Shown: in pieces, positions 17,521 through 61,564 of the stretch
Position numbering within the stretch: the first letter of the stretch is position 1
Layout: every line of letters starts with the position of its first letter
Assembly (NCBI GenBank): GCA_002069945.1
Contig: MWCH01000002.1
Location: forward strand, 79,164 to 143,163
Direction: 5' to 3'
Source: Microgenomates group bacterium ADurb.Bin219
Lineage (GTDB): Bacteria > Patescibacteriota > Microgenomatia > UM-FILTER-40-11
DNA: 64,000 nucleotides
The notes under the pieces: model-generated
What the model was told of the DNA's origin: nothing
Seen by the model: only the letters and a program-made list of their open reading frames with translations
The model's database searches: none
Position numbers and translations under genes: made by a program

Positions 17521-18762
17521 TTAATCAGATGATAATGATAACCCAATTAAAAGCGTAAGTAAAATCTGATTTTGTTGAAGGGTTAACCAGTAGTGATCGG
17601 TTGTTCCGGTTAGTAAAACAATTAGAAAAGCCAAAAACAAAAAATAATTATTTTTTCTTTTTTCTAAAAAATTTTTTAACAATAATGCAGTTATGAATAA
17701 ACCGATTAAACCGGTTTCGCCGGCAATTAACAAAAAAATATTATGAACCGGCTGAAGCCAATAAACATTTTCATTTTGACTAATTAAAACGGACAGCGCG
17801 GGAAGATAATTGTTTAAACCGACTCCCGAAAAAGGGGATTGGCAAATAATTTTTAAAGTCAAAAAAACCAAATTTTGTCGTCGTAAAAAACTTTCCTCTT
17901 CCCAAAAAAATGGCGGCATAATTTTTAAAAAAAAGGAAGCCAACAAAAAAGAAGATAAGGAAAATAGACCAGCTAAAATGATTATCTTTTTAAAAGCAAT
18001 TTGTTTTTTAACCAATATCCGTAAAACAGAAATTAAAAGGACAATTATTCCGGCGAGCCAAACAGTTCGGGAAAAAGTCAAAATCAAGGTGATTAAAATT
18101 AAAAATAAAGCCGGGAAAAAATATTTTTGATTTTTTAAAAAGGGGGGGATCATCACCAAACTGACCAAAAGAAAACCGGCTAGGGAATTGGGGTGAGAAA
18201 AGGTTGCGTAAGGCCTTAAGAAATAATGATCTCGCCAAATCGCCCTGGCAATTCCCGGAGTTGTCAAACTAAAAGTTCTTTCCCCAAACCACCAAAAAAT
18301 CCCGTTTAAGGAAGATTGTCTTAAAAATTGGCCCAAACCGATTAATGAAGAAAAAACTACCGCTAACGTTAAGACCGGCGAAATTTGCTTTAAAGTTATT
18401 TTTTCCTTTACCAAATAGCAGCCCAAGAAAAAAAATTCACAAATTTTAGCCAGTTTGTAAAAAGCGGCCGGCCGGTTTTTTGCCCAAAAACAATTAATTA
18501 AAAGAAAAACAAAACCAATAATAAAGACTGCTCCTTTTTTCCAATCGGCAAAAAATATTTTTTTAAATTTCCTTTCGGTCCATTTTTCCTTTAACCATAA
18601 AAGCAAAACGGCAATAATTAAAAGGTCGGTCAAATAAATAGTCGGGGAAAGGTAATCAATTCTCATCCCAAGAAGAAAAGACGACTTTGGCCAAAAATGA
18701 CGCCCCAGTTGGATCGGCGATAATAAAATCAGAAGCGAAAAAAGTTTTTGACGAAGCTTCAT
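17521..18762 (-). CDS. O-antigen ligase (Wzy_C)-like polytopic membrane protein
   Basis: About 11 TM helices; loop motif LTFSRTVWLAGIIV typical of the O-antigen ligase/Wzy_C family. Confidence 0.55.
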   Translation of the reverse strand: MKLRQKLFSLLILLSPIQLGRHFWPKSSFLLGMRIDYLSPTIYLTDLLIIAVLLLWLKEKWTERKFKKIFFADWKKGAVFIIGFVFLLINCFWAKNRPAAFYKLAKICEFFFLGCYLVKEKITLKQISPVLTLAVVFSSLIGLGQFLRQSSLNGIFWWFGERTFSLTTPGIARAIWRDHYFLRPYATFSHPNSLAGFLLVSLVMIPPFLKNQKYFFPALFLILITLILTFSRTVWLAGIIVLLISVLRILVKKQIAFKKIIILAGLFSLSSFLLASFFLKIMPPFFWEEESFLRRQNLVFLTLKIICQSPFSGVGLNNYLPALSVLISQNENVYWLQPVHNIFLLIAGETGLIGLFITALLLKNFLEKRKNNYFLFLAFLIVLLTGTTDHYWLTLQQNQILLTLLIGLSLSSD

Positions 18763-34925: not shown

Positions 34926-37907
34926 TTAAAGAGTGCAATTTACAGCAAGTTGGTCATACCAGTATTTTAAATTTTTAGGGAAATCCGGATTAAGGGTAAA
35001 AGAATTACAAGGATAATGACCTTCGCTGTAATTACACATAAACCTTTCAAAATTTGTTTCCGAATCATAGTTTCTAAAAACGCAATCCAATTGAGATTCA
35101 ATTTCAAATTCTCCCGCCGTGCAACCAAGTCCCCAGTCTCCAACAGCATTTGCTCCCGATTCCTCAACCCAAAGGGCGGTCAAAAAGGCCGGATTCCAGT
35201 CGTGTCTTTTTGCTTGAGTTTGAACAACCTCCCATTTTTGCGCAATTTGGCTAGTGGGCCAGTTTTTAAGAACGTATTTACTAACACAATCCTTATTGGC
35301 CGCGGAAACAGAAATTGTCGGATCGCGGAAGGGTAAGTTATAAGTAAGAACTCCGGGTTGGCCGGGAGTTGTTGTCGGCGATCCGGGGTTGGGCGTTCCG
35401 GTTGAGCTTTCGGAATAAGGAGCTAGTAATTTTTGGGTAATAAACTCCTTGACGTTTATTAAGGTTCCCAGTTTGTAAAATAGCAGGCGGAGGGAACCGG
35501 TTATTGTCCCGCCGGTAGAGGAACCGGCGACTTTAACTTCTTGGATACTGGCCGGAGTCTTGGTAATTTGATTAACTTCAATTTTTAAATCGGCTTGGGA
35601 TTCACCGGCAACTTCTCTAAAAGCTTGATTGATTTCACTGTCCGGTTGTTTGTTTTTTTGGGAAGAGGGAACAAAAATATTGAAAAAGCCTTGTCCTCCA
35701 ACCGTATTTTCAATTATTTTGTCCAAAAAAGGAACTTTATTAATACTATTTATATTGGTATCGGTAAAGTCTTTGGTTTTAACAGGACTTTCCGGGACAC
35801 AACAATTGGTCTCGGATCTAATTTTGTTGCCGTTTTCTTCATACCAACAAGTTGCGCCCGGATGACATTCCAAACAGCGATAATAAGCGACGGCATAAGC
35901 TCCGCTTCCGGTCATACGGTCAAAAACATAATTTCCTCCGTCGCCGCAGCATTTGTTTGAAGGATCGCTGATTCCGTAATATCTTCTTATTTCATCGGAA
36001 GAATAAGTTTTACAACTTTTTCCGGCGTCGTTTTCCCATTCTCTCGTTCCTGATAATTGGATATCCTGTTTTCCCGGATCTTGAATTTCCGGCTTAACAC
36101 AGATTTTGTCACCAAACCCGGACCTTGTTTCCTTATTACTGGTTTGAACGGGAACGGAATTAGTAACCGGACAAACAGTCGCCGGCAAAACTTGTCCTAA
36201 AGAGTTTTTTACTCCTCGGACAATTCCCGCTTGAGTTGCCGGGACGGAATCGGGGACCAGCATTTTCTTTATCAGCTCGGTCGTCCGGTAAAGACGATAA
36301 ATTTCCGGAACGGAAGTATTGATTGTATTTTCCGCATCTTGAATTCCGCTGCCGTAAAAGGAAATATGGCCCTTGCTTTCTTCGTTGGCAAAAAGGGGGA
36401 CTTGAGGCCAGACCTTTTCCTTAAAGTCCAATTCGGCTTGGGTAAGAATTTTTCCGTTTTTGTTTTTTTCCGTAATGGTTGAAAAGATACTAACGATTTC
36501 CGCCGGTCCTTTTCCTTCAATTGTAAAAGACAAGTAACGGCCTTTGTAATTGGGATTGGCAATCTCGTTTAAAAATTCTAATTTCAGTTGGTTTTGTAAT
36601 TCAACCGGCGCCAGTTTTTCCAAAACGCCGCTTGTTTTTATTACCTGACCCGGAGTTTGGGTAATTTTTTGCTTCGGATTGTCTACCAGAGAACCCAGGA
36701 AATATTTATTCAGGGTTTTTGCAAAAGGAATGGAAAAATTGGAGACCTCAATTTTTCCCTGAAAATCAAAACTGAGGCAATCGCCGTCCGATTTCCGGTA
36801 GGTGGCGGATTCCGGCAGATTTAGGGAATCTTTACTTAATTCTTCTCCGAAAGTTGTTACCTCTTTTATTGGTTTGCAAAAGGAAACGGCGGAGCCGCAT
36901 TCGTTGCATTCCGATTCGTCGGTAACGTAGTAGCTGTATTTTTTTCCGGGACAAAGAGTAAGACTTCCTTTTGGCCCCGATTGAGAATAAGAAGAAGGGG
37001 TTGTTTTTCCGTCGGGAGCGCTTTTTAAAAGATTAATTACGTCTTCCGGTGAAAACAAGTCCCAAGTATGACCAACCTCTCCGGCCAAGTCGTAGGCGGG
37101 AACAGCAAACATGGTGACGTTACCGTTTTTTATAAATTCATTGACGTAACGGTAAAGAGGAGAATCTGACGAAGGGGGTTGTTTAAAATAAAAATTATTG
37201 CCGCCGGTTCCCGATTCAACCCCAAAGATTGGCTTGCCAGGAACGCCCATTTGGCTTAAAAGCTCTTGGGCCTTTTGTGGGTTTCTGTGTTTTTCTCCGC
37301 AAAGGGGGGCTCCGCAATCTTCTTCGCCGAAATCGTAAAGACTTAGGGCGATTCCATAGAATTGGTTAAAAAAAGAGCTGCCAAGATTGGCGACATAGTT
37401 ATCAAAACTAGGATTAGAGGGATTTATCATCGGAGAAAGAAGTAAAACCTTGGTATCAAGAATCCCATTTGTTGAGAATTGAGAAGAAAGAGTTTGGATG
37501 TATTTTTTTAAGGTTGACTCGTCAATATAATCATTGCTTCCGGTTTGGTTTGGTTCATTCCAGGGCATAAAATAAATTTTGTTTGAGCTGGGAATACTGG
37601 CCAAGGCGGCCGCCCATTGTTTAGCCCAGTTTTCATCAGGAGCGGTTCCCGGGTAATGACCCCTGATTACTAAGTTTATTTCCGGATGATTTTCTATCAT
37701 CTGGGCAATTTTGTCGGCGTCGCCCGGACAGGGCATAATGACAACCCAGCCGCCCGCTCCGACAATACCGGCGGCCGCATCAAAATCACCAAAATGGTCG
37801 CCAATATTAATGCCGGCTTTATTTTGAGCCAAAATTGGCCGGGGATTAAAAATTAAAAAGGAAAAAAGAAAGAAAAGAAAAACAAGAATTTTAGGCAGGG
37901 TTTTCAT
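34926..37907 (-). CDS. Large secreted protein: N-terminal glycoside-hydrolase-like (clan GH-A type WNEPN motif) region, Cys-rich middle, C-terminal lytic transglycosylase (SLT)-like domain
   Basis: Signal peptide MKTLPKILVFLFFLFSFLIFNPRPILAQ; motif KIYFMPWNEPNQ; C-terminal FLTALWVEESGANAVGDWGLGC resembles the SLT catalytic Glu-Ser block. Confidence 0.45.
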   Translation of the reverse strand: MKTLPKILVFLFFLFSFLIFNPRPILAQNKAGINIGDHFGDFDAAAGIVGAGGWVVIMPCPGDADKIAQMIENHPEINLVIRGHYPGTAPDENWAKQWAAALASIPSSNKIYFMPWNEPNQTGSNDYIDESTLKKYIQTLSSQFSTNGILDTKVLLLSPMINPSNPSFDNYVANLGSSFFNQFYGIALSLYDFGEEDCGAPLCGEKHRNPQKAQELLSQMGVPGKPIFGVESGTGGNNFYFKQPPSSDSPLYRYVNEFIKNGNVTMFAVPAYDLAGEVGHTWDLFSPEDVINLLKSAPDGKTTPSSYSQSGPKGSLTLCPGKKYSYYVTDESECNECGSAVSFCKPIKEVTTFGEELSKDSLNLPESATYRKSDGDCLSFDFQGKIEVSNFSIPFAKTLNKYFLGSLVDNPKQKITQTPGQVIKTSGVLEKLAPVELQNQLKLEFLNEIANPNYKGRYLSFTIEGKGPAEIVSIFSTITEKNKNGKILTQAELDFKEKVWPQVPLFANEESKGHISFYGSGIQDAENTINTSVPEIYRLYRTTELIKKMLVPDSVPATQAGIVRGVKNSLGQVLPATVCPVTNSVPVQTSNKETRSGFGDKICVKPEIQDPGKQDIQLSGTREWENDAGKSCKTYSSDEIRRYYGISDPSNKCCGDGGNYVFDRMTGSGAYAVAYYRCLECHPGATCWYEENGNKIRSETNCCVPESPVKTKDFTDTNINSINKVPFLDKIIENTVGGQGFFNIFVPSSQKNKQPDSEINQAFREVAGESQADLKIEVNQITKTPASIQEVKVAGSSTGGTITGSLRLLFYKLGTLINVKEFITQKLLAPYSESSTGTPNPGSPTTTPGQPGVLTYNLPFRDPTISVSAANKDCVSKYVLKNWPTSQIAQKWEVVQTQAKRHDWNPAFLTALWVEESGANAVGDWGLGCTAGEFEIESQLDCVFRNYDSETNFERFMCNYSEGHYPCNSFTLNPDFPKNLKYWYDQLAVNCTL

Positions 37908-44301: not shown

Positions 44302-46038
44302 ATGTTAGTAACAAGTTTAAACTTAAAATTTAAAAGGGTAAAAATCAATTCTGCGGTTAAGATTTTTTTTATTCTCCTTTGCGCTTTCTACTATGCACTT
44401 TGCGCTCTGCCAATCAGGGCCGAATGTGCCGCTACCGATTATGACTGCCAGATTAGGGAGTTGCAAAAAGAAGTTGATGCGAGGACGGAAGCCCACGAAA
44501 AAAACAAATTAAGCCTGGCCGCTTACGAAAAAGAATTAAGCCGGATCGCCAATACTTTAACTTTATTGGCCGGCAAATTAAAAGCAACGGAAAAGGAAAT
44601 TTTTCAAAGGGAAGTTGATCTGGCGACCCAAAAAGAATTATTGGAAGTGCGGATTAGGGATTTATACAAAAAAAGCCGGAACTCTTCCCCTCTTTTCCTT
44701 CTGCTTTCTTCCCGCTCTGCCGGCGAATTTACGCAGCAATTGGGGTTAAGACGGGCGGCGGCCAACGAAGACTTAAGAATTATCAATCTTTTATCAAAGG
44801 ACATTTCCCGTTTGGAAACGGACAAAACGAATTTTAAAAAAAGTCAGGTTTCCTTGGCCGCTTTGCAAAAAAAAGTTGACAGCCAGGCTTCCTTTTTAAG
44901 ACAGGAAGTTCAAAAAACCGAAAGCTTCTTTTCCCAAATTGCTGCCAAGCAAAAAGATCTTTTGGCTTTAAAATCAGGCGGCTTTTCCACTTCGGTTGGC
45001 GACGTGCCACCGGCCGACGATCCGGCTTCCCGGCCGGATTATAATCCGGGCTTTTCGCCCGCTTTTGCCGTCTTTTCCTTTGGCGCTCCCCATCGGAAAG
45101 GGATGAGCCAATATGGAGCTTACGGCCGGGCTAAGGCCGGGCAATCGGCGGAGGATATTTTACGCGCTTATTACGGCAATATTGAAATTAAAAAGGATTA
45201 TTCAACGGCGATTAATATTCGGGTAACCGGGTACGGTACCGTTGATATTGAAACTTACGTCAAAAGAATTTACGAAATGCCTTCTTCTTGGGGAGACAGC
45301 GGCGGTTTTGAAGCCCTTAAGGCCCAGGCAGTGGCGGCCCGATCTTACGCTTTGGCTTATACCAATAACGGCAGTGGTTCAATTTGTGCGACCGAATCCT
45401 GTCAGGTTTATAAACCGGCCAACAAAGGCGGTAAATGGGACGAAGCGGTTAACGCGACCCGGGGCTGGGTTTTAATTGCCGGCGGCAAACCCTTTTCCGC
45501 CTGGTATGCTTCTACGGCCGGCGGCTATACTTTTTCCTATTCTCACAATGGCCATACAACTCCCGGTCTCTGGGATACAGCCAAAGGTAGGGAGGGTTGG
45601 ACCTCGGAAGCTTACGAAAAGACCGCCGGCTCGCCTTGGTTTTATAAAGCCTGGTATCGCTTAAGAAGCGGCGGATCATACGGTCGTTCCCATCCCTGGT
45701 TGACCGAAACGGAATTTAGCGATGTTGTTAATGCCCTTTTAATTTACAAAGGGAATTCCAGCGAGGTTTCCCATCTTTCTTCTTTGGACGCGGGGATTTC
45801 CGATACTTGGAGTATGGCCAAAGTTAAGGAAGAAGCGGCCAGATACGGTGGACCAGTCGGGAAAATTAATTCGGTTGAACAAGTCTATTCAAACGACGGC
45901 TATACCAAAATTGTTTATTTGGAAACGGACAAAGGCAGGAAGGAATTTTCTGGAGAGGATTTTAAATATATGTATAATTTGCGCGCTCCGGGAGCCATCG
46001 GCATCAAATCAAGTTTGTTTGATATCAGAAGAAAGTGA
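44302..46038 (+). CDS. SpoIID/LytB-domain protein with N-terminal signal anchor and coiled-coil region
   Basis: SpoIID signature SFGAPHRKGMSQYGAYGRAKAGQSAEDILRAYYGN; N-terminal coiled coil (QIRELQKEVDARTEAHEKNKL ...). Confidence 0.7.
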   Translation: MLVTSLNLKFKRVKINSAVKIFFILLCAFYYALCALPIRAECAATDYDCQIRELQKEVDARTEAHEKNKLSLAAYEKELSRIANTLTLLAGKLKATEKEIFQREVDLATQKELLEVRIRDLYKKSRNSSPLFLLLSSRSAGEFTQQLGLRRAAANEDLRIINLLSKDISRLETDKTNFKKSQVSLAALQKKVDSQASFLRQEVQKTESFFSQIAAKQKDLLALKSGGFSTSVGDVPPADDPASRPDYNPGFSPAFAVFSFGAPHRKGMSQYGAYGRAKAGQSAEDILRAYYGNIEIKKDYSTAINIRVTGYGTVDIETYVKRIYEMPSSWGDSGGFEALKAQAVAARSYALAYTNNGSGSICATESCQVYKPANKGGKWDEAVNATRGWVLIAGGKPFSAWYASTAGGYTFSYSHNGHTTPGLWDTAKGREGWTSEAYEKTAGSPWFYKAWYRLRSGGSYGRSHPWLTETEFSDVVNALLIYKGNSSEVSHLSSLDAGISDTWSMAKVKEEAARYGGPVGKINSVEQVYSNDGYTKIVYLETDKGRKEFSGEDFKYMYNLRAPGAIGIKSSLFDIRRK

Positions 46039-49427: not shown

Positions 49428-49800
49428 GGGGATGACAGGCTTCGACGGAAAGCGCTCTTTTAAAACGGCAAGCCCCCGTTGATTCATCGGGGCTAAACAG
49501 GATCAAAAAATAAAAGTCAACGATACTGTTGATTCCGCAGTCAGCGAGAAATTCGCTGTCAATTACGCATTCGCGTAAACGGCATTCGGTGGGTTTTTTC
49601 TCAACGGAACCTTCCGGGTGTAAACAAAGTTGAGACGTAACCCCGGCGTTTGATTTCACCGGCGGGGCCAAAGATAAAAAAATCTAGCCCGGACTTTCTC
49701 GCCGATTGGATCAGGTTCGGGTGAAAAAATAAATTTCGGCTAAGCTTGTAGAAGTTTTAGAAAAGTCTTTTCGGATCCCGGTTCAATCCCGGGCATCTCC
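49428..49800 (+). ncRNA. ssrA: tmRNA (ssrA), standard one-piece form, directly after smpB
   Basis: 5' GGGGATGACAGGCTTCGACG pairs with 3' CATCTCC as a tRNA-Ala-like acceptor stem including the G3:U wobble; T-arm GGTTCAATCCCGG; candidate tag ORF ...GCAGTCAGCGAGAAATTCGCTGTCAATTACGCATTCGCGTAA (AVSEKFAVNYAFA*). Confidence 0.8.
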
Positions 49801-49959
49801 ACTTTGACTCGCCCTTCGCCATGACTCAAGGCTCGCTTGGTGTAAACACTTTGTCCGGATATAAATATATAAGGGGGTAGAACAAGCGAGTCGAAACCCT
49901 GGGTGAAGTCGAAGGGCTTTCGTCTTAGTTAAGTGTAAAAACAACGAGAGGATAAAAGT

Positions 49960-50984: not shown

Positions 50985-51069
50985 GGAGGGTATCCCGAAC
51001 GGTTGAGGGAATGGTTTGCTAAACCATGGCCGCGAAAGTGGTCGGTGGGTTCGACTCCCACACCCTCCG
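50985..51069 (+). tRNA. tRNA-Ser (anticodon GCT), class II with long variable arm
   Basis: Acceptor GGAGGGT/ACCCTCC, anticodon stem ATGGT/ACCAT with loop TTGCTAA, T-arm GGTGGGTTCGACTCCCAC; position 8 is A (atypical). Confidence 0.7.
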
Positions 51070-51100
51070 CCTTCGGCGGATGCAGTCCGCTATAATTCAA

Positions 51101-51187
51101 GGAGAGGTGCTAGAGTGGTTGAATAGGTCGGTCTTGAAAACCGATATAGCCGCAAGGTTATCGCGAGTTCGAATCTCGCCCTCTCCG
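51101..51187 (+). tRNA. tRNA-Ser (anticodon TGA), class II
   Basis: Acceptor GGAGAGG/CCTCTCC, anticodon stem TCGGT/ACCGA with loop CTTGAAA, T-arm GCGAGTTCGAATCTCGC. Confidence 0.8.
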
Positions 51188-51189
51188 CT

Positions 51190-51236
51190 TTCGCCCGCCA
51201 AAACTTTATGGCGGCGGCGACTGTTGATTTTATTTC
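51190..51236 (+). terminator. Probable rho-independent terminator after the tRNA-Ser pair
   Basis: GC-rich imperfect hairpin GCCCGCCA...TGGCGGCGGC followed by T-rich tract ttgattttatttcc. Confidence 0.3.
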
Positions 51237-51258
51237 CCCTTTCCGTTAGTCTTTAATT

Positions 51259-51900
51259 ATGCCCGAAGAAAATCTGCCCCCATCTCAATTAGAGGGAAAT
51301 CAAACCCCGGAATTATCCGATCCCGAGCCTCAGCCGATTGAAGTAATGGCGGTTCGTCAATTAAAAGTCCTTTTTGCTTGGAAGGCGGCGGTAAGACCCT
51401 TCAAGAAAAGAGATAAGGAATATTGGACAACCGTTTTTGCAATTCTTTTTTTGCTTGTTTTAATTTTGTTTTTCGTTAAAGAGTGGTTTTTGATCGCGGC
51501 GATAATTTCCTTGGCTTTTGTTTATTATGTTCTTTCTACTGTTCCGCCGGAGGAGATTGAATACCGGATTACCAATAAAGGAGTTGCTTTTGAAGATAAA
51601 AGCTATGATTGGGAATATCTTTGGCGTTTTTGGTTTTCCAACAAGTATGATCAAAGATTATTAAATATTGATACCCGGCTAAACCTTCCCGGCCGGTTGC
51701 TTTTTGTTATCAAAAAAGAAAACGAAAAACAGATTAAGGAAATTTTGGAAAAATATTTGCTTAACGAAGAAGCGCCGTTGACTTTCTTTGACAAGGCTTC
51801 GGCCTGGCTGGCCAAAAAAGTTCCTCTAGATTTAGAAGAGAAAGAGGAAAAAAAAGATCCTCCCTCGGGGCCAATTTTACCCACTTCTTCTCCGGCTTAA
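51259..51900 (+). CDS. Hypothetical two-TM membrane protein
   Basis: 213 aa; TMs TTVFAILFLLVLILFFV and FLIAAIISLAFVYYVL; lies between the two tRNA groups. Confidence 0.45.
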   Translation: MPEENLPPSQLEGNQTPELSDPEPQPIEVMAVRQLKVLFAWKAAVRPFKKRDKEYWTTVFAILFLLVLILFFVKEWFLIAAIISLAFVYYVLSTVPPEEIEYRITNKGVAFEDKSYDWEYLWRFWFSNKYDQRLLNIDTRLNLPGRLLFVIKKENEKQIKEILEKYLLNEEAPLTFFDKASAWLAKKVPLDLEEKEEKKDPPSGPILPTSSPA

Positions 51901-51974
51901 CTTTTGAACCTAAATTTTGGTATAATCTAGAGGTTTACCTGGAGTATCTCGACTTTTCTTAGTATAAGTTTGAT

Positions 51975-52049
51975 GTGCCTGTAGCTCAGATTGGATAGAG
52001 CGCAGCCCTGCGGAGGCTGAAGTCGGGCGTTCGAATCGCCCCAGGCACG
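51975..52049 (+). tRNA. tRNA-Arg (anticodon GCG)
   Basis: Acceptor GTGCCTG/CAGGCAC, D-arm GCTCAGATTGGATAGAGC, anticodon stem CAGCC/GGCTG with loop CTGCGGA, T-arm GGGCGTTCGAATCGCCC. Confidence 0.75.
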
Positions 52050-52056
52050 CATTATT

Positions 52057-52138
52057 GGAGGGTGGGCAGGACGGTAATGCGTTGGTTTCGAAAACCAATG
52101 TCCGTAAGGGCTAACAGGTTCGACTCCTGTACCCTCCG
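52057..52138 (+). tRNA. tRNA-Ser (anticodon CGA), class II
   Basis: Acceptor GGAGGGT/ACCCTCC, anticodon stem TTGGT/ACCAA with loop TTCGAAA, long variable arm, T-arm ACAGGTTCGACTCCTGT. Confidence 0.7.
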
Positions 52139-52248
52139 CACTTCGACTTGCATTCCTTTGCAGAGAGCAAGCCGTAAGTACAGTTTGAAGGGCGGCAAGT
52201 CTGGCTTGGCAAAGCCGAAGGATGGTTTACTCCGAACAAACGTGAGGA

Positions 52249-52322
52249 GCGCCCATAGTTTAACGGATAAAATGCTGGGTTCCGGACCCAGAGACTTGGG
52301 GGTTCAATTCCCTCTGGGCGCA
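52249..52322 (+). tRNA. tRNA-Arg (anticodon CCG)
   Basis: Acceptor GCGCCCA/TGGGCGC, anticodon stem CTGGG/CCCAG with loop TTCCGGA, T-loop TTCAATT. Confidence 0.7.
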
Positions 52323-52462
52323 CAAAAGATAGAGAGGAGAGGCCAGAGAACTGAGAAAAGTGTTTTTTTCTTTTACTCCTAATAAGACAGAAATTAACCA
52401 AGTCTCGCTTTTTGCTTCAAAAAAAGATAAAATTATGCTCTAAAGATCAATTTAGTTTACCC

Positions 52463-52552
52463 GGAGAGGTCGCATAGTGGTCGAGTGCACACGCTTGGAG
52501 AGCGTGCAGGGCCGAAAGGCTCTCGAGGGTTCGAATCCCTCTCTCTCCGCCA
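52463..52552 (+). tRNA. tRNA-Ser (anticodon GGA), class II, CCA encoded
   Basis: Acceptor GGAGAGG/TCTCTCC (one G:U), anticodon stem CACGC/GCGTG with loop TTGGAGA, long variable arm, T-arm GAGGGTTCGAATCCCTC, discriminator G + CCA. Confidence 0.8.
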
Positions 52553-53226: not shown

Positions 53227-55056
53227 TTGGGCTGCTTGCCTGCGGATATGGATCAGATTGAAGAAATTAAAGCCAAAATTGATTTAGTCCAATTTATTTC
53301 CGGCTATATGCCCCTACAAAAAGCCGGCCGCAATTTTAAGGCTCCTTGCCCTTTTCATACGGAAAAAACGCCTTCCTTTATTGTTTCTCCGGAAAGACAG
53401 ATTTGGCATTGTTTTGGTTGCCAAAAGGGCGGAGATGTTTTTCGTTTTTTGATGGAGTATGACCGGATGGATTTCGGCGAGGCTTTAAGACTTTTGGCCA
53501 AAAAAACCGGCGTGGTTTTAAAAAGTTACCAGCCAAGTGAAGACGAAGCTCAAAAAGAAAAACTTTACCAGATTAATCATCTGGCGATGGAGTTTTTCCA
53601 TTATCTTTTGTTAAACCATCAGGCGGCCAAGCCGGCTTTGGAATATATCTTAAGCCGGGGAATAAGCAAAGATTCTTTAAAGCTTTTTAAAATCGGGTAT
53701 TCTCCCCATCTTTGGGACGGATTACAACAATATTTGGTCGGTAAAAAGGGCTATCGTTCCCCTGATCTTGAGGCCGCCGGTCTGATTATCCCTACTTCCC
53801 GCGTCTCGTCTCCCGCTTCCCGCTCCCAATACTATGATCGTTTCCGCCACCGGCTGATGTTTCCCTTGATTGATCACCGCGGTAATGTCCGCGGTTTTGC
53901 CGGCCGGGTTTTGGACCCTTTGGCAAAAGAAGCAAAGTATGTCAATACGCCGGAAACTTTGGTTTATCACAAAAGCGAGTTGCTCTACCCCTTGGATTTA
54001 ACCAAAGAGGAAATCAAAAAAGAAAATCAGGCGGTTGTGGTCGAGGGCGAGCTGGACGCAATTTCTTCCTTCCAAATCGGAATTAAAAACGTCGTGGCCA
54101 TTAAAGGGAGCGCCTTAACCGAAGCTCAGGTAAAGCTTTTAAAAAGATTTACGGACAATTTGGTCTTGGCTTTGGATGCGGATATCGCCGGCGACCAGGC
54201 GGTCAGAAGAGGGATTGAAATTGCCGACAAAGAAGGATTAAACATCAGAGTTTTGGAATTGGAAAAATATAAAGATCCGGACGAAGCGGCCCAAAAAGAG
54301 CCGAAATATTACCGCGATTGTCTTAAAAAAGCCGTTCCCTATTATGATTTTTTAATTGATTCCTCTTTTAAAAGAAACGCCGGAGAAACGCCGGAAGGGA
54401 AACGGAAAATCGGCGAAGAATTGATTCCGCCGTTGTCCCGGATTGAAAACGAAATCGTCAAAGACCACTATTTAAGAAAATTGGCGGACAAATTGGGGGT
54501 TAGCGAGGAGGCGATCGGTATCCAGATAAAAAAATATTTGGCTAATCAAAATTTGGTTAAACCGGCCTTGGCGCCCGAAAAAACAAACCGCAGTCGGGAG
54601 GAGATTTTGGAAGAATATTTACTCGCGCTTTGTTTCCAGTCGGGAAAAATCCGAGCCTTATCGGTTGAGGAAAATCGCAACCTGTTTCAATTGCCCGGTT
54701 ATCGGAAAATGATAGATTTGTTAAATCCTTTTTTTGAAAAGAAATTTTCCAGTGCCGAGTTTGCCGCGGTTTTACCCTTGGAGCTGACGGATCTTTTTAA
54801 TAATATCTATCTGGTTGATTTGGGGAAAAATAACGAAAGAATTGAAGACGAAGATTGGTTGGATAAGGAAATCGGCCAAACGCTTCAGCAGATGAAGATT
54901 TTAAAAATTAAAAAGGATTTGGTCTCGGTTTCCGAGGAAATTAAAAAAATGGAGAAAGAAGACCGTTCCGGCAGCAGCGATTGGAAAGAGGCGGAAAACA
55001 GATTTAAAAACCTTTCGGAACAGCTAGCTTCAATAAAAGAAGAAAAAAGTGTATAA
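53227..55056 (+). CDS. dnaG: DNA primase DnaG
   Basis: CHC2 zinc finger CPFHTEKTPSFIV ... HCFGCQKGGD, TOPRIM domain (VVVEGELDAIS ... LALDADIAGDQA). Confidence 0.9.
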   Translation: MGCLPADMDQIEEIKAKIDLVQFISGYMPLQKAGRNFKAPCPFHTEKTPSFIVSPERQIWHCFGCQKGGDVFRFLMEYDRMDFGEALRLLAKKTGVVLKSYQPSEDEAQKEKLYQINHLAMEFFHYLLLNHQAAKPALEYILSRGISKDSLKLFKIGYSPHLWDGLQQYLVGKKGYRSPDLEAAGLIIPTSRVSSPASRSQYYDRFRHRLMFPLIDHRGNVRGFAGRVLDPLAKEAKYVNTPETLVYHKSELLYPLDLTKEEIKKENQAVVVEGELDAISSFQIGIKNVVAIKGSALTEAQVKLLKRFTDNLVLALDADIAGDQAVRRGIEIADKEGLNIRVLELEKYKDPDEAAQKEPKYYRDCLKKAVPYYDFLIDSSFKRNAGETPEGKRKIGEELIPPLSRIENEIVKDHYLRKLADKLGVSEEAIGIQIKKYLANQNLVKPALAPEKTNRSREEILEEYLLALCFQSGKIRALSVEENRNLFQLPGYRKMIDLLNPFFEKKFSSAEFAAVLPLELTDLFNNIYLVDLGKNNERIEDEDWLDKEIGQTLQQMKILKIKKDLVSVSEEIKKMEKEDRSGSSDWKEAENRFKNLSEQLASIKEEKSV

Positions 55057-56264: not shown

Positions 56265-56762
56265 CTATTGACCTTTGGGCAGACTTTCGCAAGCTTTTCC
56301 ATCCTTGTCGCCGTCAAGTCGGTAAAGATCATTGCCGATTCCGCCGACTTTGAGGAAAAATCTTTGCGCTTCGGGTTGAGTTGAAAAATCGTCGCAATTA
56401 TAATCGCCGGCTTTTTTACCCTTGGTGCTGTCGGTGGTAATATTGCCCAATTTATCAAAAAGAAGATTCCCTTCGGTATCGCGGGAAACTTTTGATTCCT
56501 GAAATGATTTTGTTTCCAAAAGTTTTCCCAAATCCCAATCGTTTTGTGAGACCTCAAGACCCAAAGCCGCCAAAAGGGCGATAAAAGCAACAACCAACGC
56601 CAGTCGAAGTTTTTTGACGAAAATAAAAAGAACGGCGACAATTGCCATCAGGATAATAATCAAAATCAGCCGGAATTTATGCGAACCCCTTAAATTTTGA
56701 GCTTTTGAGGGTTTGTTTTCTTCCTTAATTTCGGGATCGGAATTAACCTTTTCTTTTACCAT
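56265..56762 (-). CDS. Membrane-anchored protein with C-terminal Excalibur (extracellular Ca-binding) domain
   Basis: [20 protein letters not shown] ... ; C-terminus [17 protein letters not shown] ... [13 protein letters not shown]. Confidence 0.5.
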
Positions 56763-56846: not shown

Positions 56847-57872
56847 TTATTTAAGAAGAAACGTTGTTTCAAAAAGATTAAGCAGGTAGCCGATTAAGAC
56901 TATTCCCATTGCGGTTAAGCCAAAAAAGATTGCCAGCAATTGCCACTTCATGATTTTTTTTAGCATCAGGGCTTCGGGTATTGATAAGGTGACGATGGAG
57001 GTCATAAAAGCCAAAGCAGTTCCCAAGGGAACTCCTTTTTTTACCAGTGCTTCCATAATGGGAATTACACTTACGGAATTGGCATAGAGGGGTAACCCCG
57101 AGAGAGTTGCCAGTGGAATAGCCCACCAACTCCTCGTTGATAGATATTTTTCAATTATATTGGCGGGGACAAAACCGTGTATAAGAGCACCGATTCCTAC
57201 GCCCGCGATGACATATGGGAATACATTTTTGGTGATAATTATTGAATCGTGCCAAAAATATTTTACAAGTTCCTTAAAAGGCAAAGATTTTTCGCCATTT
57301 TCTTTTTCAACCTGGATTTTGGATTTAAATTTAAGCAATTCGGTTTTAACATACTTTTCAACTCGCAACTTTTGGATAAGCAGACCACTTAAAATTGCTA
57401 CAGCCATTCCAATCAGATTGTAAAAGATGGTTACTTTCATCCCAAAAAGGGCGGGGAAAAGATACAGCGAAGATTCGTTAACTAAAGGAGAACTAATTAA
57501 AAAAGTAAACGTTACCCCTAAGGGTATTCCTGCTCCCACAAAGCCGATAAATAAAGGAATGGAAGAGCAGGAGCAAAAGGGGGTTATCGCACCCAGCGCC
57601 GCCGCGAAAAAATAATCCAATCCAAACCAACGGCGCCTGGTAAGAAAATCCCTTACTTTTTCCATCGGAAAGTAATAGCGGGTTACCGCCATAAAATAGT
57701 TAATGACAGCCAGCAGCAATCCAATCTTGATGGTATCGTAGATAAAAAAATTAAGAGAGCTGCCGAAATAAGATTGGCTGTCCAAGCCAAGCCATTGATT
57801 GGTTATTAAATTTGCCAATTGTTGGACAAATTGGAATATCTTCATAGTTAGCAATTGCCCCCGCAACTGCAA
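56847..57872 (-). CDS. ArsP-like/DUF318 family permease
   Basis: Polytopic; conserved ITPFCSCSSIPLF motif characteristic of ArsP/DUF318 permeases. Confidence 0.65.
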   Translation of the reverse strand: MQLRGQLLTMKIFQFVQQLANLITNQWLGLDSQSYFGSSLNFFIYDTIKIGLLLAVINYFMAVTRYYFPMEKVRDFLTRRRWFGLDYFFAAALGAITPFCSCSSIPLFIGFVGAGIPLGVTFTFLISSPLVNESSLYLFPALFGMKVTIFYNLIGMAVAILSGLLIQKLRVEKYVKTELLKFKSKIQVEKENGEKSLPFKELVKYFWHDSIIITKNVFPYVIAGVGIGALIHGFVPANIIEKYLSTRSWWAIPLATLSGLPLYANSVSVIPIMEALVKKGVPLGTALAFMTSIVTLSIPEALMLKKIMKWQLLAIFFGLTAMGIVLIGYLLNLFETTFLLK

Positions 57873-58138
57873 TTGCCCGTCTTTGGTTGGCTGGCGATTA
57901 AAGAACCGGATGAGATTGCCTGTTTAATTTTTTCCAAATTCGGGAGAGAACCCACCAGTACCGGTTTGTCATCAACGACCAATACCGGACTTGACATTAT
58001 TCCCATTTGGATAATTTTAGATATGTCGGTTATATATTCTACTTCATCTTTTAAACCGAGTTCTTTTACTGCCTGCTTGGTGGTCTCGAAAAACTGTTTA
58101 CAGGTTGTACAGCCGGAACCCAAAACTTGAATTTTCAT
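57848..58138 (-). CDS. Thioredoxin-fold redox-active disulfide protein 2-like, with C-terminal Cys cluster
   Basis: MKIQVLGSGCTTCKQ N-terminus (CxxC in thioredoxin fold); C-terminal NCSCGGNC. Confidence 0.65.
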   Translation of the reverse strand: MKIQVLGSGCTTCKQFFETTKQAVKELGLKDEVEYITDISKIIQMGIMSSPVLVVDDKPVLVGSLPNLEKIKQAISSGSLIASQPKTGNCSCGGNC

Positions 58139-58164
58139 AATTTTTTTTGTAAATTAAATTATTA

Positions 58165-58281
58165 TTATTTTTTTTCTGCGTTTTCCGAATTTTCTTTTTG
58201 GCCAGAACATTGGCAGTCTTTTCCGCAATCGCAGCCGCAATTGCAGCAGCAACAACATGAACATTTTTTATCGTCTTTCAT
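58165..58281 (-). CDS. Small Cys-rich metallothionein-like peptide (38 aa, 11 Cys); not in the ORF track
   Basis: Manual minus-strand translation MKDDKKCSCCCCCNCGCDCGKDCQCSGQKENSENAEKK*; RBS aaggaggtg 7 nt upstream; ATG shares one base with the ArsR stop (TAATG). Confidence 0.5.
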   Translation of the reverse strand: MKDDKKCSCCCCCNCGCDCGKDCQCSGQKENSENAEKK

Positions 58282-58622
58282 TATTTTTTCACCTCCTTTC
58301 CTGAAATTGTCAGTAAAGCTTTTAAAAAGCGGACGCCTTTAGGCGTCAGCCGGTAATCAATAAATTTTCCCTGTCTTTCTTTTTTAACCATATCGGCCTT
58401 GGTCAGATCCGCCAGGTGGTGGGAAACCAGACTTTGGGAAAGGTCGGTATGTTTTTCCAAATCGCAAACGCAATGATTTTTTTGATAAAGCAAAAATAAA
58501 ATCTCCAGCCGCGATTGAGCAGAAAGAAGAGCCAGATCTTGGCTTAACTTTTTGGTTTCCTTTCCCGCCAAAGAACAACGGCAGTCTTTCGATGAACAAT
58601 GACAGCGCTTAGATATGAACAT
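58281..58622 (-). CDS. ArsR/SmtB family metal-sensing transcriptional repressor with Cys-rich N-terminus
   Basis: HTH LEILFLLYQKNHCVCDLEKHTDLSQSLVSHHLADL (ArsR signature incl. CVC metal site); N-terminal CHCSSKDCRC. Confidence 0.75.
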   Translation of the reverse strand: MFISKRCHCSSKDCRCSLAGKETKKLSQDLALLSAQSRLEILFLLYQKNHCVCDLEKHTDLSQSLVSHHLADLTKADMVKKERQGKFIDYRLTPKGVRFLKALLTISGKEVKK

Positions 58623-58671
58623 ATGTTCATATATTAATTCAAAGATTGGGTTTTGTCAAGAGGAATATTAA

Positions 58672-59547
58672 CTAAATTTCCAAATGAAGAAAGTTGCGGA
58701 CGATTAAACCGATAAAAAAGCTTAAAAAAGCAACCCCAAAACTTAAGGAAAGATTTTCAAGAAATCTTTTTTTGAAAGAAACATCCTGGGTAATGGAGGT
58801 ATATAAGGAAAAAAAGAAAATTATCAGGCCGGCATTGGCTAAGGTTAAAGCAAGGGAAAGGTAATAATTTCGGGAAATAAAATAAGGACTTATCAATAAA
58901 ATTACCGTCATAACGTAGGTAATTCCGGTATATAAAGAAGCCTTTAGCGGGTTGCGGATAGTTTTCTCGCTTTTTGTAGAAAGATATTCGGAAGAGGCCA
59001 TTGATAATGAGGCAGCCAAACCGGTAATTAAGCCGGTAGCGCCGATTAATTGGTTGTTTTGCAGGGCCAAAGTTAATCCGGCTAAGGTTCCGGTCAATTC
59101 AACCAAGGCGTCGCTTGAACCGAGAACAATGGAGCCCATATATTTCAACAAATCCTCGTTTATCAGGCCGACGACCTCTTTTTCGTGCTTTTTTTCTTCA
59201 TCAATAATCCAGGCGAATTCTTTATTGGATTTAGCGAGCTCTTCATAGATATTTCTGATCGCCTCTTCTGTATGCTCCATTACTTTTACCCCAAAAGTCA
59301 GACCAAAAACTTTTCCGAGGTTAGAGTAAAACCAGACGCGCAATTTCTTTTGGCCGACTTCCTTTTGCGTAATATTTTGCCAATATTGGTAGTGTTTTAA
59401 AGAATCTTCAGCTAGATGGGTTAAGGTTTTTTTTGTTTCCTGGTTTTTTACTCTTTTGGTGAGGTTTTTATAGATTTGATATTCGGAGATTTCCAGTTGT
59501 TGGAGGTGAAGAATTTTATCAACGGTTTCTTTTGGAAGCGATTCCAT
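58672..59547 (-). CDS. Ferritin-like domain fused to VIT1/CCC1-family membrane transporter (iron/manganese)
   Basis: N-terminal rubrerythrin/ferritin-like helices (EYQIYKNL ... HLAEDSLKHYQYWQ ... EHTEEAIRNIYEELAK); C-terminal VIT-type TMs with GSSDALVELTGTLAGL and LITGLAASLSMASSEYLSTKSE. Confidence 0.65.
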   Translation of the reverse strand: MESLPKETVDKILHLQQLEISEYQIYKNLTKRVKNQETKKTLTHLAEDSLKHYQYWQNITQKEVGQKKLRVWFYSNLGKVFGLTFGVKVMEHTEEAIRNIYEELAKSNKEFAWIIDEEKKHEKEVVGLINEDLLKYMGSIVLGSSDALVELTGTLAGLTLALQNNQLIGATGLITGLAASLSMASSEYLSTKSEKTIRNPLKASLYTGITYVMTVILLISPYFISRNYYLSLALTLANAGLIIFFFSLYTSITQDVSFKKRFLENLSLSFGVAFLSFFIGLIVRNFLHLEI

Positions 59548-59694
59548 AAAGTAATATTACTACAAATGAAATTTACAATTTAGAAGGCATGATGTATAAT
59601 TTTGAGCGTAGACTAGTTGAGAATTGACCAGAGGTCTTTGAAAATTAAATAAACAAATTTGTACATTGTAACTTATCAATGGTACATTTTTTAA

Positions 59695-59989
59695 TCCCCT
59701 GTAGCTCAATGGTAGAGCGGCTCCCTGTCGAAGAGTAGGCAGCTTCCCGAAGTAATTCGGGTTGAAAAATCTGGCTAATTCGGGGAAGTCCTGAATTTAT
59801 CGAAGGATAATCCCGAGCTAAATTCCGAACGCAATGAAGGACTCGTCCTGAGCTTGCTGAAGGATAAACGTGTAGAGACTATATACCAGAGTCCGATTTT
59901 AATCGGACATAAGATAGTCCAAACCTTTTGGTAACAAGAGGGCTTTTGTAAGGAGAAGGTTAGAGGTTCGAGTCCTCTCGGGGGAGCCA
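59695..59989 (+). tRNA. tRNA-Asn (anticodon GTT, tentative) interrupted by a 220 nt group I intron in the anticodon loop; CCA encoded
   Basis: Exon 1 TCCCCTGTAGCTCAATGGTAGAGCGGCTCCCTGT (59695-59728), exon 2 TAAGGAGAAGGTTAGAGGTTCGAGTCCTCTCGGGGGAGCCA (59949-59989); joined they give a cloverleaf with loop CTGTTAA and T-loop TTCGAGT; one G:A mismatch at 27:43. Confidence 0.65.
59729..59948 (+). ncRNA. Group I self-splicing intron (small, IC3-like) inside the tRNA
   Basis: Conserved core elements: P AATTCGGG(G), Q AATCCCGAGC, R GTAGAGACTATA, S AAGATAGTCC (R GACTA pairs S TAGTC to form P7); IGS GCAG can pair with exon end CTGT giving the U:G at the 5' splice site; intron ends in G. Confidence 0.7.
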
Positions 59990-61564
59990 GATGGGACGCA
60001 GAGGCAACAAAGCGTCCTTTTGTGTTGAATCGTCGGGATTTTTTGTTAGTTCGAATTTTCCATTTTCCAAGTCGTCAATTTTTTCCACTTTCGGACCATT
60101 TGTTTCTATCACTGCTTCGGAGAGTAATTTAAAGGTTTTACTGTAGGTGTAGCTGAGTTTTCCTTCATCAACTGTTAAGGACCCGAAGACAAAGCGGATT
60201 AACGATCTCTGTTCATCGATCATGTCCTTGCTCTTGGCTTCCAGATAAATTTCTTTGGCTCTTTGAGAGAGTTCATAAATGCTCATGCCTAAGTTTAAGA
60301 AGCCAGTGCTGGCATTAGCATGCTTTTTAATCGACCCGGTGATTTCGTCTTTCTCCTCTGAATACTGTTTAAACTTGCGGTTATAAAACTCGGGGGTGAT
60401 TTTCTCATCGAGCTTATCGTCGTAGAGTCTGTCCATTCGTTTCTGCACCGCTTCATAACGGGTGTTCAGCTCGCCCATGGTGTCATTATGATATTCGACT
60501 TCGTCTTTGTGACTTTCCTTTAAGGCTTTACGGAGCCAGTCGGTAATCCGGGCGTTTTTGATACGAAGGTTTTCAAAGCCGCTAATAAGCTGAGATTCGA
60601 CCTCATCTTCTTTGACCCAGGTGGTCTGTGGGCATTCATGATAATGGTTACAATGGCCGTAAATGTATTGACCCTTAGCGATTTCGAAGGTAATGGAATT
60701 GTGGCACCCAGCGCATTTAATCAGTCCTCTAAAGAGAAAGTTGTGCTTGCGGTATTTGGGTGTAGTTCTGCTCGTTAGCATCGCCTGGACCTTATTAAAT
60801 TGCTCAACAGTAATCAATGGCTGGTGTTTACCTTCAAATAGTTCGTCGTTCCATTTGATTTTACCAATATAAAAAGGCTCACGGAGAAGGGAGTGGATCC
60901 GACTGTGTGGCAGCTTGTGTCCTAATTGGGATCTCATGCCTTCGGCGTACATTTTTTTGGAGAGCCGTTTAGTTGAGTAGTTGCCGGTGAGATAGAGTTC
61001 AAACATTTTCCTCACAAAAGGAGCGGTGTCCTCGTCGATGACATGGATTTTATGCCCAGTTTCGCCAATGGTCTTGTAACCGTTTGGTGGTTTGGTTGGT
61101 AGCCAGCCCTGGGCGATTTTCTCTTTCTGTCCTTTCTTAACGTTCTCTGATAATAGTCGTACATAATACTCGGCGGTAGCGACCTTTACTCGCCACATAA
61201 ACCATTCATGGGACCGGGAGGTGTTGTGGAGGATGCAGCCTTCTTTAGCCAAGTGGACCTGATGGGTTTCGTTCTCGGTAATCCAGAGATCAATCATGGG
61301 AACATCGGCAAAGTTCCTGGTCAGCCGGTCCGTAGTCTCAACAATAATGGTGGGGATATCGTGCTTGCGAACATAGGCCACCATCTCGATAAAGACTTTT
61401 CTCTGGGTTTTCCCAGCAGCCGATTCGGAAATGGCAAAGACTTTGGCTACTTCCAATCCTTGTTTCTCAGCATAATCGCGCAAGAACTTCTCCTGGGCTG
61501 GTAATGAGTAGCCCGTGTCTTCTTGTTCTTTGCTGCTGACTCGGCAGAAAATGGCAGTTTTCAT
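59960..61564 (-). CDS. Large serine recombinase (integrase), C-terminal codons overlap the tRNA 3' end
   Basis: N-terminal resolvase catalytic domain (IFCRVSSKEQ with catalytic Ser), recombinase domain, zinc ribbon CAGCHNSITF ... HCNHYHEC, coiled-coil; last 10 codons (WLPREDSNL*) are the reverse complement of tRNA exon 2. Confidence 0.85.
   Translation of the reverse strand: MKTAIFCRVSSKEQEDTGYSLPAQEKFLRDYAEKQGLEVAKVFAISESAAGKTQRKVFIEMVAYVRKHDIPTIIVETTDRLTRNFADVPMIDLWITENETHQVHLAKEGCILHNTSRSHEWFMWRVKVATAEYYVRLLSENVKKGQKEKIAQGWLPTKPPNGYKTIGETGHKIHVIDEDTAPFVRKMFELYLTGNYSTKRLSKKMYAEGMRSQLGHKLPHSRIHSLLREPFYIGKIKWNDELFEGKHQPLITVEQFNKVQAMLTSRTTPKYRKHNFLFRGLIKCAGCHNSITFEIAKGQYIYGHCNHYHECPQTTWVKEDEVESQLISGFENLRIKNARITDWLRKALKESHKDEVEYHNDTMGELNTRYEAVQKRMDRLYDDKLDEKITPEFYNRKFKQYSEEKDEITGSIKKHANASTGFLNLGMSIYELSQRAKEIYLEAKSKDMIDEQRSLIRFVFGSLTVDEGKLSYTYSKTFKLLSEAVIETNGPKVEKIDDLENGKFELTKNPDDSTQKDALLPLRPIWLPREDSNL

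Follow-up and report, generated by a model that had tools for sequence, protein, structure and literature searches.

A putative metallothionein-like, cysteine-rich microprotein encoded next to its presumed ArsR-type sensor in a Microgenomates group bacterium

In the SmtB-SmtA and AzuR-NmtA systems of cyanobacteria, a sensor of the ArsR/SmtB family is encoded beside a small cysteine-rich metal-binding protein which is under its control (PMC8790569). Such a combination of a sensor and a metal sink can stand without an efflux pump, as it does in some of the loci described below. To our knowledge, bacterial metallothioneins have been found in a few lineages only. Here we describe a comparable arrangement in Microgenomates group bacterium ADurb.Bin219, in a stretch of 64,000 nucleotides (contig MWCH01000002.1, positions 79,164 to 143,163; this whole stretch, to which positions given without a locus name refer, is called the window). 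It consists of a gene for an ArsR/SmtB-type repressor and a 38-codon poly-cysteine open reading frame (ORF) which directly follows it on the minus strand. The original prediction, made from the letters of the window, had taken the product for a metallothionein-like peptide and had likened the pair to smtB-smtA. We now favour, with moderate confidence, a microprotein that, like a metallothionein, would trap thiophilic metals and metalloids or act as their chaperone. It would be produced from an arsR operon which is apparently leaderless and autoregulated.

The smtA and smtB genes are transcribed divergently, whereas the poly-cysteine ORF appears to be co-transcribed after arsR from a leaderless promoter. 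The SmtA and BmtA proteins comprise ~55 amino acids (aa) with ~16% Cys plus His, have a Cys9His2-3 zinc-finger-like fold and belong to the Pfam family Metallothio_Pro, whereas the peptide described here has 38 aa, 29% Cys and a Cys run. In its size, a Cys content of ~30%, the CxC and CC motifs, the abundance of Lys and the lack of aromatic residues, it resembles eukaryotic metallothioneins such as the mammalian 11-Cys α-domain and the Neurospora-type copper metallothionein of 25 aa, and a cluster of the M4Cys11 type would suit its 11 Cys residues. However, there is no sequence homology to the eukaryotic proteins, in which runs of 5–8 Cys are untypical, and the gene described here is bacterial and embedded in an operon.

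Two other types of operon are close to the locus in their organization. The AntR-AntC-AntA system of Comamonas testosteroni consists of an ArsR-type regulator, an Sb(III) metallochaperone and a P-type ATPase. The ArsR, peptide, ArsE-like thioredoxin and permease genes of the window resemble this system in logic, and the homologous loci L116 and L117 likewise combine an ArsR-type regulator, a small putative metal or metalloid protein and an efflux pump in one operon. The likeness concerns the operon logic only: the pump encoded in the window is an ArsP_1-type permease, and the peptide is much smaller than AntC and far richer in Cys. The window genes for ArsR, thioredoxin and permease are of the same operon type as the arsR-arsE-arsP operons, which encode an ArsE protein (PF13192) and an ArsP/DUF318 permease but have been described without a gene for a Cys-rich microprotein between arsR and arsE. 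Operons of the order arsR-arsP-arsE were found to be induced by arsenic in Pseudodesulfovibrio mercurii.

Direct reading of the minus strand from 58281 to 58165 (stop codon included) gave the translation MKDDKKCSCCCCCNCGCDCGKDCQCSGQKENSENAEKK, i.e. 38 aa with 11 Cys (29%). The strong ribosome-binding site and the overlap of the start codon with the ArsR stop in TAATG, both noted in the original prediction, were confirmed as well. The A of the ATG is the last base of the ArsR TAA (58283..58281), and the ORF ends with three in-frame TAA codons (58167..58159), the additional two of which lie at 58164..58159. The Shine-Dalgarno (SD) sequence AAAGGAGGTG (58300..58291, minus strand) lies within the 3′ coding end of arsR, where it encodes ..GKEV.., and is separated from the ATG of the poly-cysteine ORF by 9 nt. 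The Cys core of the peptide is CSCCCCCNCGCDCGKDCQC with a run of five Cys; F, W, Y and H are absent, and Met1 is the sole aliphatic residue. Similarly, 20 peptides of the family contain 30% Cys, 25% Lys, 22% Asp plus Glu, 0.5% aromatic and almost no aliphatic residues. The composition of the window peptide agrees with the operational definition of metallothioneins (low mass, Cys ~15–35%, CxC, CC and CxxC motifs, few or no aromatic residues); in this respect the description as metallothionein-like stands, but membership of a known metallothionein family was not borne out by Pfam and NCBIfam. The same locus with an identical sequence is present on a 43-kb Logan contig and on a JGI contig, and the peptide gene was called on neither.

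The distribution of such ORFs was analysed in relatives of the locus. An alignment of 43 ArsR homologs served to fetch 160 loci (80 from GTDB species genomes, 80 from JGI metagenomes), with ArsR oriented on the plus strand. The genome records that carry names are almost all from Patescibacteria, i.e. the candidate phyla radiation (CPR): Gottesman-, Levy-, Roizman-, Shapiro- and Woesebacteria. The six frames of 1.0 Mb of DNA (160 ArsR-homolog loci and the window) were scanned for Cys density in stop-to-stop segments of at least 20 aa (n = 28,504), and just 30 segments had at least 9 Cys within 30 aa. Twenty-seven of them lie directly 3′ of ArsR on the same strand and one follows a remnant of ArsR (L006), whereas the remaining two represent a single duplicated out-of-frame segment. 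The search in related genomes that had been proposed with the original prediction thus yielded ~25 distinct loci with a Cys-rich ORF of 28–43 aa after an ArsR gene, and the ArsR proteins encoded there are 49–92% identical to that of the window.

The peptides are far more divergent than the regulators. Their identity drops to 35–50% (mean column identity 35%), and they share a common architecture: Met, a short stretch rich in Lys, Asp and Asn, a run of 2–8 Cys, repeats of CxC or CC with Asp, Lys, Asn, Gly or His as spacers, and a Lys/Glu tail. The total number of Cys per homolog is 8–14, extending over the CxC repeats, and the Cys codons are TGC (149) and TGT (105). Among 22 loci examined, the start codon is ATG in 20 and GTG in two; the SD core GGAGG or AGGAG is present in 19, with degenerate G-rich variants in the remaining three. 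When 12 diverse loci were aligned, the only near-invariant DNA block was AAGGAGGTGA, with the start codon 7–9 nt further on. As the SD lies within the 3′ end of arsR, the ArsR proteins accompanied by a peptide gene have recurrent ‘..KGGE..’ C-terminal tails, which are absent where a thioredoxin gene abuts arsR. In the closest relatives (L083, L084 and L086; ArsR 90–92% identical), the 19-codon Cys core differs by 5–6 synonymous changes (TGT/TGC, TCA/TCC, GGC/GGT) and one change from Lys to Ser, and all Cys residues are retained. L083 and L084 have an additional GKDCDC unit, a modular duplication of GKDCQC.

The original prediction would, in its own terms, have been contradicted if homologous loci did not keep the ORF or kept the region merely as nucleotides, for instance as a structured RNA. 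Instead, the protein pattern, the SD and the position were found to be kept. A structured RNA or riboswitch was ruled out: nothing relevant was found for the poly-cysteine region in Rfam, the folding z-score at the ORF was −0.5, RNAalifold gave 0 consensus pairs and there were no conserved flanking hairpins. An antisense gene was rejected as well; the antisense ORFs occupy different frames at different loci, have TTG or GTG starts only and an SD in just one of 19 cases, and are absent from two loci. On these grounds, the poly-cysteine ORF is very probably a real, translated gene. In L006 (950–1300), all that is left upstream of the Cys-rich ORF MVDNKKCCCCECECEDKCNDKNCCGKEEKEIKKEDTVK and its SD is a remnant of the 3′ end of an ArsR gene (..LKKKGGEKKYGRQ*), and an intact ArsR gene follows; the peptide gene has therefore outlived the ArsR gene originally upstream of it. 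A terminator-like hairpin, GACGCCTAAAGGCGTC followed by CGCTTTTTAA (58332-58347, minus strand), lies in the ArsR coding sequence ~30 nt before the SD of the peptide gene. It was dismissed as a regulatory element because it occurs just in the closest relatives (L083–L086) and is not conserved in the family.

None of the database searches assigned the peptide to a described family. No Pfam or NCBIfam family matched the window peptide at E ≤ 1, two of its homologs matched no Pfam family at E ≤ 0.1, and the window peptide was not recognized by the Metallothio_Pro (BmtA/SmtA) profile. In an exact look-up, the window peptide was found nowhere as a called gene, and none of nine family variants was found among ~15 billion predicted proteins; the sole relative in this collection was a 59-aa ‘hypothetical protein’ of Levybacteria, which belongs to a second class of Cys-rich peptides (see below). 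A word-indexed homology search with the peptide padded to 42 aa gave no candidates, phmmer gave 0 matches among 1.84 billion representatives, and a profile of 20 family members gave 8000 word-sharing candidates among 5.8 billion clusters, none of them significant. A full-text literature search for ‘candidate phyla radiation’ together with ‘metallothionein’ retrieved no paper linking both.

The gene upstream of the poly-cysteine ORF (58622..58281, minus strand) encodes a 113-aa repressor of the ArsR/SmtB family (Pfam HTH_5, PF01022, 3.5e-16, 59.3 bits with a cutoff of 22; NCBIfam HTH_metalloreg, NF033788, 4.9e-21, 74.3 bits with a cutoff of 55). The protein has N-terminal Cys residues at positions 7, 9, 14 and 16 and an HCVCD motif in helix α3. 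C7, C9, H50, C51 and D54 are invariant in the 43 homologs and C53 is nearly so. The closest solved structures are Lmo1102/CadC and SmtB, with CVCD aligned. Such Cys patterns form α3 or α3N thiolate sites which sense Cd, Pb and Zn or As(III), and the site of the window ArsR is predicted to be of the CadC-like α3N type. No homologs of this ArsR were found in viral contigs.

A promoter-like sequence, TTGACA-17 nt-TAATAT (58631..58659, minus strand), is located upstream of arsR, with 8 nt between the end of its −10 hexamer and the ATG; the arsR mRNA is therefore expected to be leaderless or near-leaderless. A perfect 20-bp palindrome, ATATGAACAT/ATGTTCATAT (58613..58632), spans the ArsR start codon and is the presumed ArsR operator. 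The same order of TTGACA, ~17 nt, TAnnAT and a palindrome (ATATGAAnnTATGTTCATAT) holding the ATG was found in 67 of the 71 homologous loci of the ArsR clade that could be examined (L003–L150). The Met-Phe-Ile N-terminus of ArsR is nearly invariant because these codons form half of the presumed operator. Judged by this layout, the arsR message is most likely leaderless and autoregulated. In the window as a whole, most long ORFs have no SD and many have a TATAAT-like hexamer right before the start codon (for example, the ORFs 17521-18762, 31387-33234, 34926-37907, 44302-46038, 53227-55056 and 56265-56762), which suggests that leaderless translation may be widespread in this organism.

Translation of the peptide would be initiated in a different way. 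Along the 64 kb of the window, each strand contains a single copy of AGGAGGTG, and a 5-base match to an SD near a potential start codon is seen in just 8 of the 43 long ORFs. The SD of the peptide gene is the strongest in the window, whereas arsR lacks one altogether. Across the family, the peptide ORF may overlap the end of arsR by as much as 23 nt or start up to 27 nt after the ArsR stop, and in L116 the gap is 121 nt. The stoichiometric co-expression by translational coupling that had been proposed in the original prediction is unsupported, since an apparently leaderless arsR contrasts with a strong SD of the peptide gene and the geometry of the overlap is not kept (−23 to +121 nt). It is more likely that the peptide is translated independently of ArsR, driven by its own SD and probably in excess.

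The ArsR gene and the peptide gene form a constant unit across the loci, whereas the genes that follow vary. In the window and in L086, L089, L091, L092, L094, L107 and L112, the pair is followed by genes for an ArsE-like thioredoxin and an ArsP_1 permease. The window thioredoxin (58138..57848, minus strand; 96 aa, MTH895/ArsE family, TIGR00412, 84 bits) has the tail CSCGGNC at the end of its C-terminal part (57848-57920). Its ATG lies 26 nt past the peptide stop, behind an A/T-rich gap and without an SD. The gene of the ArsP_1/DUF318 permease (57872..56847, minus strand; PF03773, 197 bits) has its probable start at ATG 57845, 2 nt after the thioredoxin stop. This succession of starts suggests re-initiation along the operon. 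The permease contains the motif TPFCSCSS, and CSC is the hallmark common to the SO_0444 Cu/Zn efflux and SaoE permeases.

Elsewhere, the pair stands alone. Pfam showed that it is followed by a convergent gene in L095 (cobalamin adenosyltransferase) and L100 (RNase J) and by a peptidase S51 gene in L103, and the sequence after the pair in L097 and L104 likewise lacked homologs of the thioredoxin and the permease. In L084 (2064–2720; ArsR 92% identical), ArsR and a 13-Cys peptide are kept and the thioredoxin and permease genes are absent, although the synteny with the window (Excalibur-domain gene, rpoD and dnaG) is retained. In L116 and L117, the genes after the pair encode a membrane protein of the type HMA-DsbD_2-cupredoxin and a P1B ATPase. 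The latter contains the motifs CPC, YN and MxxSS, which we take, by established classification, to be the P1B-1 signature of Cu(I)/Ag(I) transporters of the CopA type. The comparison with smtB-smtA was partly supported: the regulator appears to be a thiolate sensor of the CadC/SmtB type, and the occurrence of the pair alone or with a copper-type ATPase fits the logic of a sensor plus a sink. In most CPR homolog loci, the peptide gene is lacking and the thioredoxin gene starts at −4 to +10 nt from the ArsR stop.

Cys-rich segments were also found in other forms. One is joined to the C-terminus of ArsR in L027. Peptides of a second class (~54–62 aa) have the pattern M..CxC..KKCC..CC with 4–8 Cys, followed by an amphipathic helix that is conserved, MSKEDLLAKKxxLEExLKEVxEAL. 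They are free-standing in L005 (2083–2262), L067 and L114, encoded on the opposite strand beside ArsR (convergently) in L039 and L048, and fused in frame to ArsR in L010, L012, L017, L124, P0007 and P0040-44. They are annotated as ‘hypothetical protein’ only (PIP74898.1) and belong to no Pfam family. Moreover, 32 of 127 ArsE-like thioredoxins have a C-terminal tail of the CxCGGxC type beyond the 75-residue family model. The tails in L026 (11 Cys), L043, L051, L077 and L151 contain 6–11 Cys, and the thioredoxin of L160 was likewise listed among those with a Cys-rich C-terminal tail. The mobility of the Cys-rich module, which occurs free, fused to ArsR and fused to thioredoxin, argues for a function at the polypeptide level together with the sensor and the thioredoxin. 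A conceptually similar protein is TrxMt, a chimera of a canonical TrxA with an SmtA-type domain, the parts of which are reportedly 96% identical to enterobacterial TrxA and 98% identical to Synechococcus SmtA, respectively (PMC13578184). The protein families differ from those described here, and with such identities we treat the natural origin of TrxMt with caution.

On balance, the peptide and the upstream CadC/SmtB-type ArsR are probably a two-gene module of a sensor and a sink. ArsR bound to the palindrome, which overlaps its own −10 region and start codon, would repress the leaderless operon. By analogy with the family, Cu(I), Cd, Zn or Pb, or As(III) or an organoarsenical, would fill the site formed by the Cys-rich N-terminus and the α3 CVC motif and release ArsR from the DNA. 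The peptide would then be made, presumably at a high level, from the strongest SD of the region. Through the 11 thiolates of a Cys run and CxC repeats, which lie between ends rich in Lys, Asp and Glu, it would bind the metal or metalloid in clusters and thus buffer it. With metallothionein chemistry, 11 Cys would bind on the order of 3–4 M(II), ~6 Cu(I) or 3 As(III). The peptide may also pass the metal to an efflux protein encoded downstream. The ArsE-like thioredoxin might keep these thiols in the reduced state or process the substrate, and the ArsP-type permease with the CSC motif, or CopA at other loci, would perform the export.

Several observations weigh against this interpretation. Both the translation of the peptide and its binding of metal are predicted from the sequence, and neither Pfam nor NCBIfam gave a match of the peptide to a metallothionein family. 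Runs of 5–8 Cys are unusual in characterised metallothioneins and are a hallmark of the cysteine-sensing attenuator ORFs of mycobacteria. The genomic contexts do not agree on the metal, with indications of As, Cu and Cd/Zn, and the distribution of the peptide gene is patchy even where ArsR is at least 49% identical to that of the window. Read from the opposite strand, a TGY run becomes CAR (Gln) with the wobble positions in common, and the biased composition keeps several other frames open; counts of synonymous changes alone are therefore not decisive for the Cys frame. The negative database searches say little about the distribution because short, biased sequences cannot reach significance.

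A more far-reaching, tentative version of the same interpretation, to which we give a small chance, would make the peptide a gene-encoded counterpart of phytochelatins in CPR bacteria: a carrier that, loaded with metal or metalloid, is handed to or exported by the ArsP-type permease with the CSC motif or CopA. It is equally speculative that the ArsE-like thioredoxin recycles the peptide and that the Cys-rich module is evolutionarily mobile between the free, ArsR-fused and thioredoxin-fused forms. If this carrier function were true, the family would be the first of the metallothionein type in Patescibacteria and the most Cys-dense known in bacteria, and the peptide might replace low-molecular-weight thiols in reduced genomes.

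The peptide could alternatively be a dedicated partner of ArsR that donates metal to the ArsR site or withdraws it, or that binds ArsR itself, and so sets the induction threshold or acts as an anti-repressor. The invariable position of the peptide gene beside this clade of ArsR genes, the retention of the pair where efflux genes have been lost and the in-frame fusions of second-class peptides to ArsR in several independent loci would agree with such a role. However, the fusions mostly involve the second-class form rather than the poly-cysteine form, and the Cys-rich tails on thioredoxins suggest a general module for metal handling. Moreover, with a strong SD beside a leaderless arsR, the peptide would be expected in molar excess, as is more typical of a buffer. 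We therefore regard a role confined to ArsR as doubtful.

Stalling at the Cys codons might serve as a cysteine-responsive switch, in which scarcity of Cys-tRNA alters the expression of the downstream thioredoxin and permease genes. There is a precedent in Mycobacterium smegmatis and M. tuberculosis, in which leaderless polycysteine small ORFs are the first ORFs upstream of genes of cysteine metabolism and an RNA duplex masks the next SD (Canestrari et al., bioRxiv 10.1101/834739). As here, they are unannotated short ORFs with consecutive Cys codons (5 in the window, 2–8 in the homologs) which are located in operons and missed by gene callers. Furthermore, the thioredoxin start without an SD, 26 nt past the peptide stop, may depend on ribosomes finishing the peptide. 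Of the defining features of such attenuators that were examined, however, the consecutive Cys codons are the only one present. The ORF described here is a second gene with a strong SD and it is arsR that holds the leaderless first position; the 8–14 Cys spread over CxC repeats, well beyond the run, far exceed the needs of stalling. The downstream genes (for the Trx_3/ArsE-like protein and the ArsP_1 permease, or for HMA/CopA proteins) are outside cysteine metabolism, and several loci offer no gene to regulate, as the pair stands alone or faces a convergent gene. Neither a conserved duplex nor a terminator was found around or after the ORF, and the Cys-rich modules also occur as protein fusions. 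An attenuator is accordingly quite unlikely, and it is equally unlikely that stalling at the Cys codons has a secondary effect on re-initiation at the genes downstream.

It is improbable, too, that the peptide buffers thiol redox state or reactive sulfur, serving as a sacrificial thiol or as a carrier of persulfide that the ArsE-like thioredoxin recycles and that a persulfide-sensing ArsR similar to BigR or SqrR controls. The thioredoxin-like gene after the peptide gene and the genes of the rubrerythrin/VIT1 type upstream would suit such a buffer, and ArsR has a weak, sub-threshold NCBIfam likeness to BigR (44 bits with a cutoff of 155) and to TsoR. Its Cys residues, however, follow the metal or metalloid sensor pattern of an α3 CVC motif and N-terminal Cys and not the BigR Cys pair. 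Linkage to a CopA-type ATPase with HMA domains in L116 and L117, and the association of the CSC permease family with the efflux of metals or organoarsenicals, also argue for metals rather than sulfur.

We consider it very improbable that the ORF is non-functional, i.e. a by-product of a TGY trinucleotide repeat, the reverse of an antisense gene, or a frame kept only for an SD that serves something else. Several alternative frames are indeed open through the biased composition, and the peptides have never been reported by gene callers. Nevertheless, SD, start, stop and Cys pattern are kept in ~25 loci at 35–50% peptide identity, Cys is strictly kept amid synonymous variation, antisense ORFs are inconsistent, and the ORF is strongly localised beside ArsR. 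It is hardly credible that the small Cys-rich ORF encodes a precursor of a ribosomally synthesized and post-translationally modified peptide (of the SCIFF, ranthipeptide or sactipeptide kind), as no gene for a radical-SAM or other maturase was found among the neighbours and no SCIFF or other NCBIfam model matched, or that a programmed −1 frameshift extends ArsR into it. A frameshift might be suggested by the natural ArsR fusions and by GGAGGTGAAAAAATAATG, in which the SD directly precedes a run of A at the ArsR stop, but it was ruled out because the A-run is not conserved in homologs while the SD-ATG spacing is.

The preferred reading of a metallothionein-like sink would add to the known systems an ArsR-controlled microprotein with an extreme Cys run which is co-transcribed after its own sensor. 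The window peptide would represent a whole family of microproteins of 28–43 residues with ~30% Cys, tied to one clade of ArsR and missed by gene callers, and metal homeostasis of uncultured bacteria with reduced genomes may thus rest on small unannotated genes. The peptide is easily synthesised for studies of metal-binding chemistry, and the compact cassette of a sensor and a sink might be of use in biosensing or bioremediation. The family also provides a clean test case for distinguishing functional poly-cysteine microproteins from poly-cysteine attenuator ORFs.

Directly upstream of the ArsR promoter, a gene for an erythrin/rubrerythrin-VIT1 fusion (59547..58672, minus strand) was found, with a weak match to iron exporters of the MbfA type. 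In L117, a rubrerythrin gene is likewise located upstream of ArsR. These genes suggest a small neighbourhood concerned with metal and oxidative stress. Further upstream, a group I intron (Rfam, 64.8 bits; 59641-59941, plus strand) apparently lies within a tRNA-like gene, the 5′ half of which begins at ~59693 (TCCCCTGTAGCTCAATGGTAGAGC) and the 3′ half of which, GGTTCGAGTCCTCTCGGGGGAGCCA, extends to 59989. With ARAGORN, no gene was called there, and trial splicing did not change this. At its 3′ end, the tRNA-like gene overlaps the end of a gene for a large serine recombinase (59960-61564, minus strand), as at an integration site. On the other side of the operon, a transfer-messenger RNA gene is located at 49428-49804 (133.8 bits), and six tRNA genes are clustered at 50985-52549.

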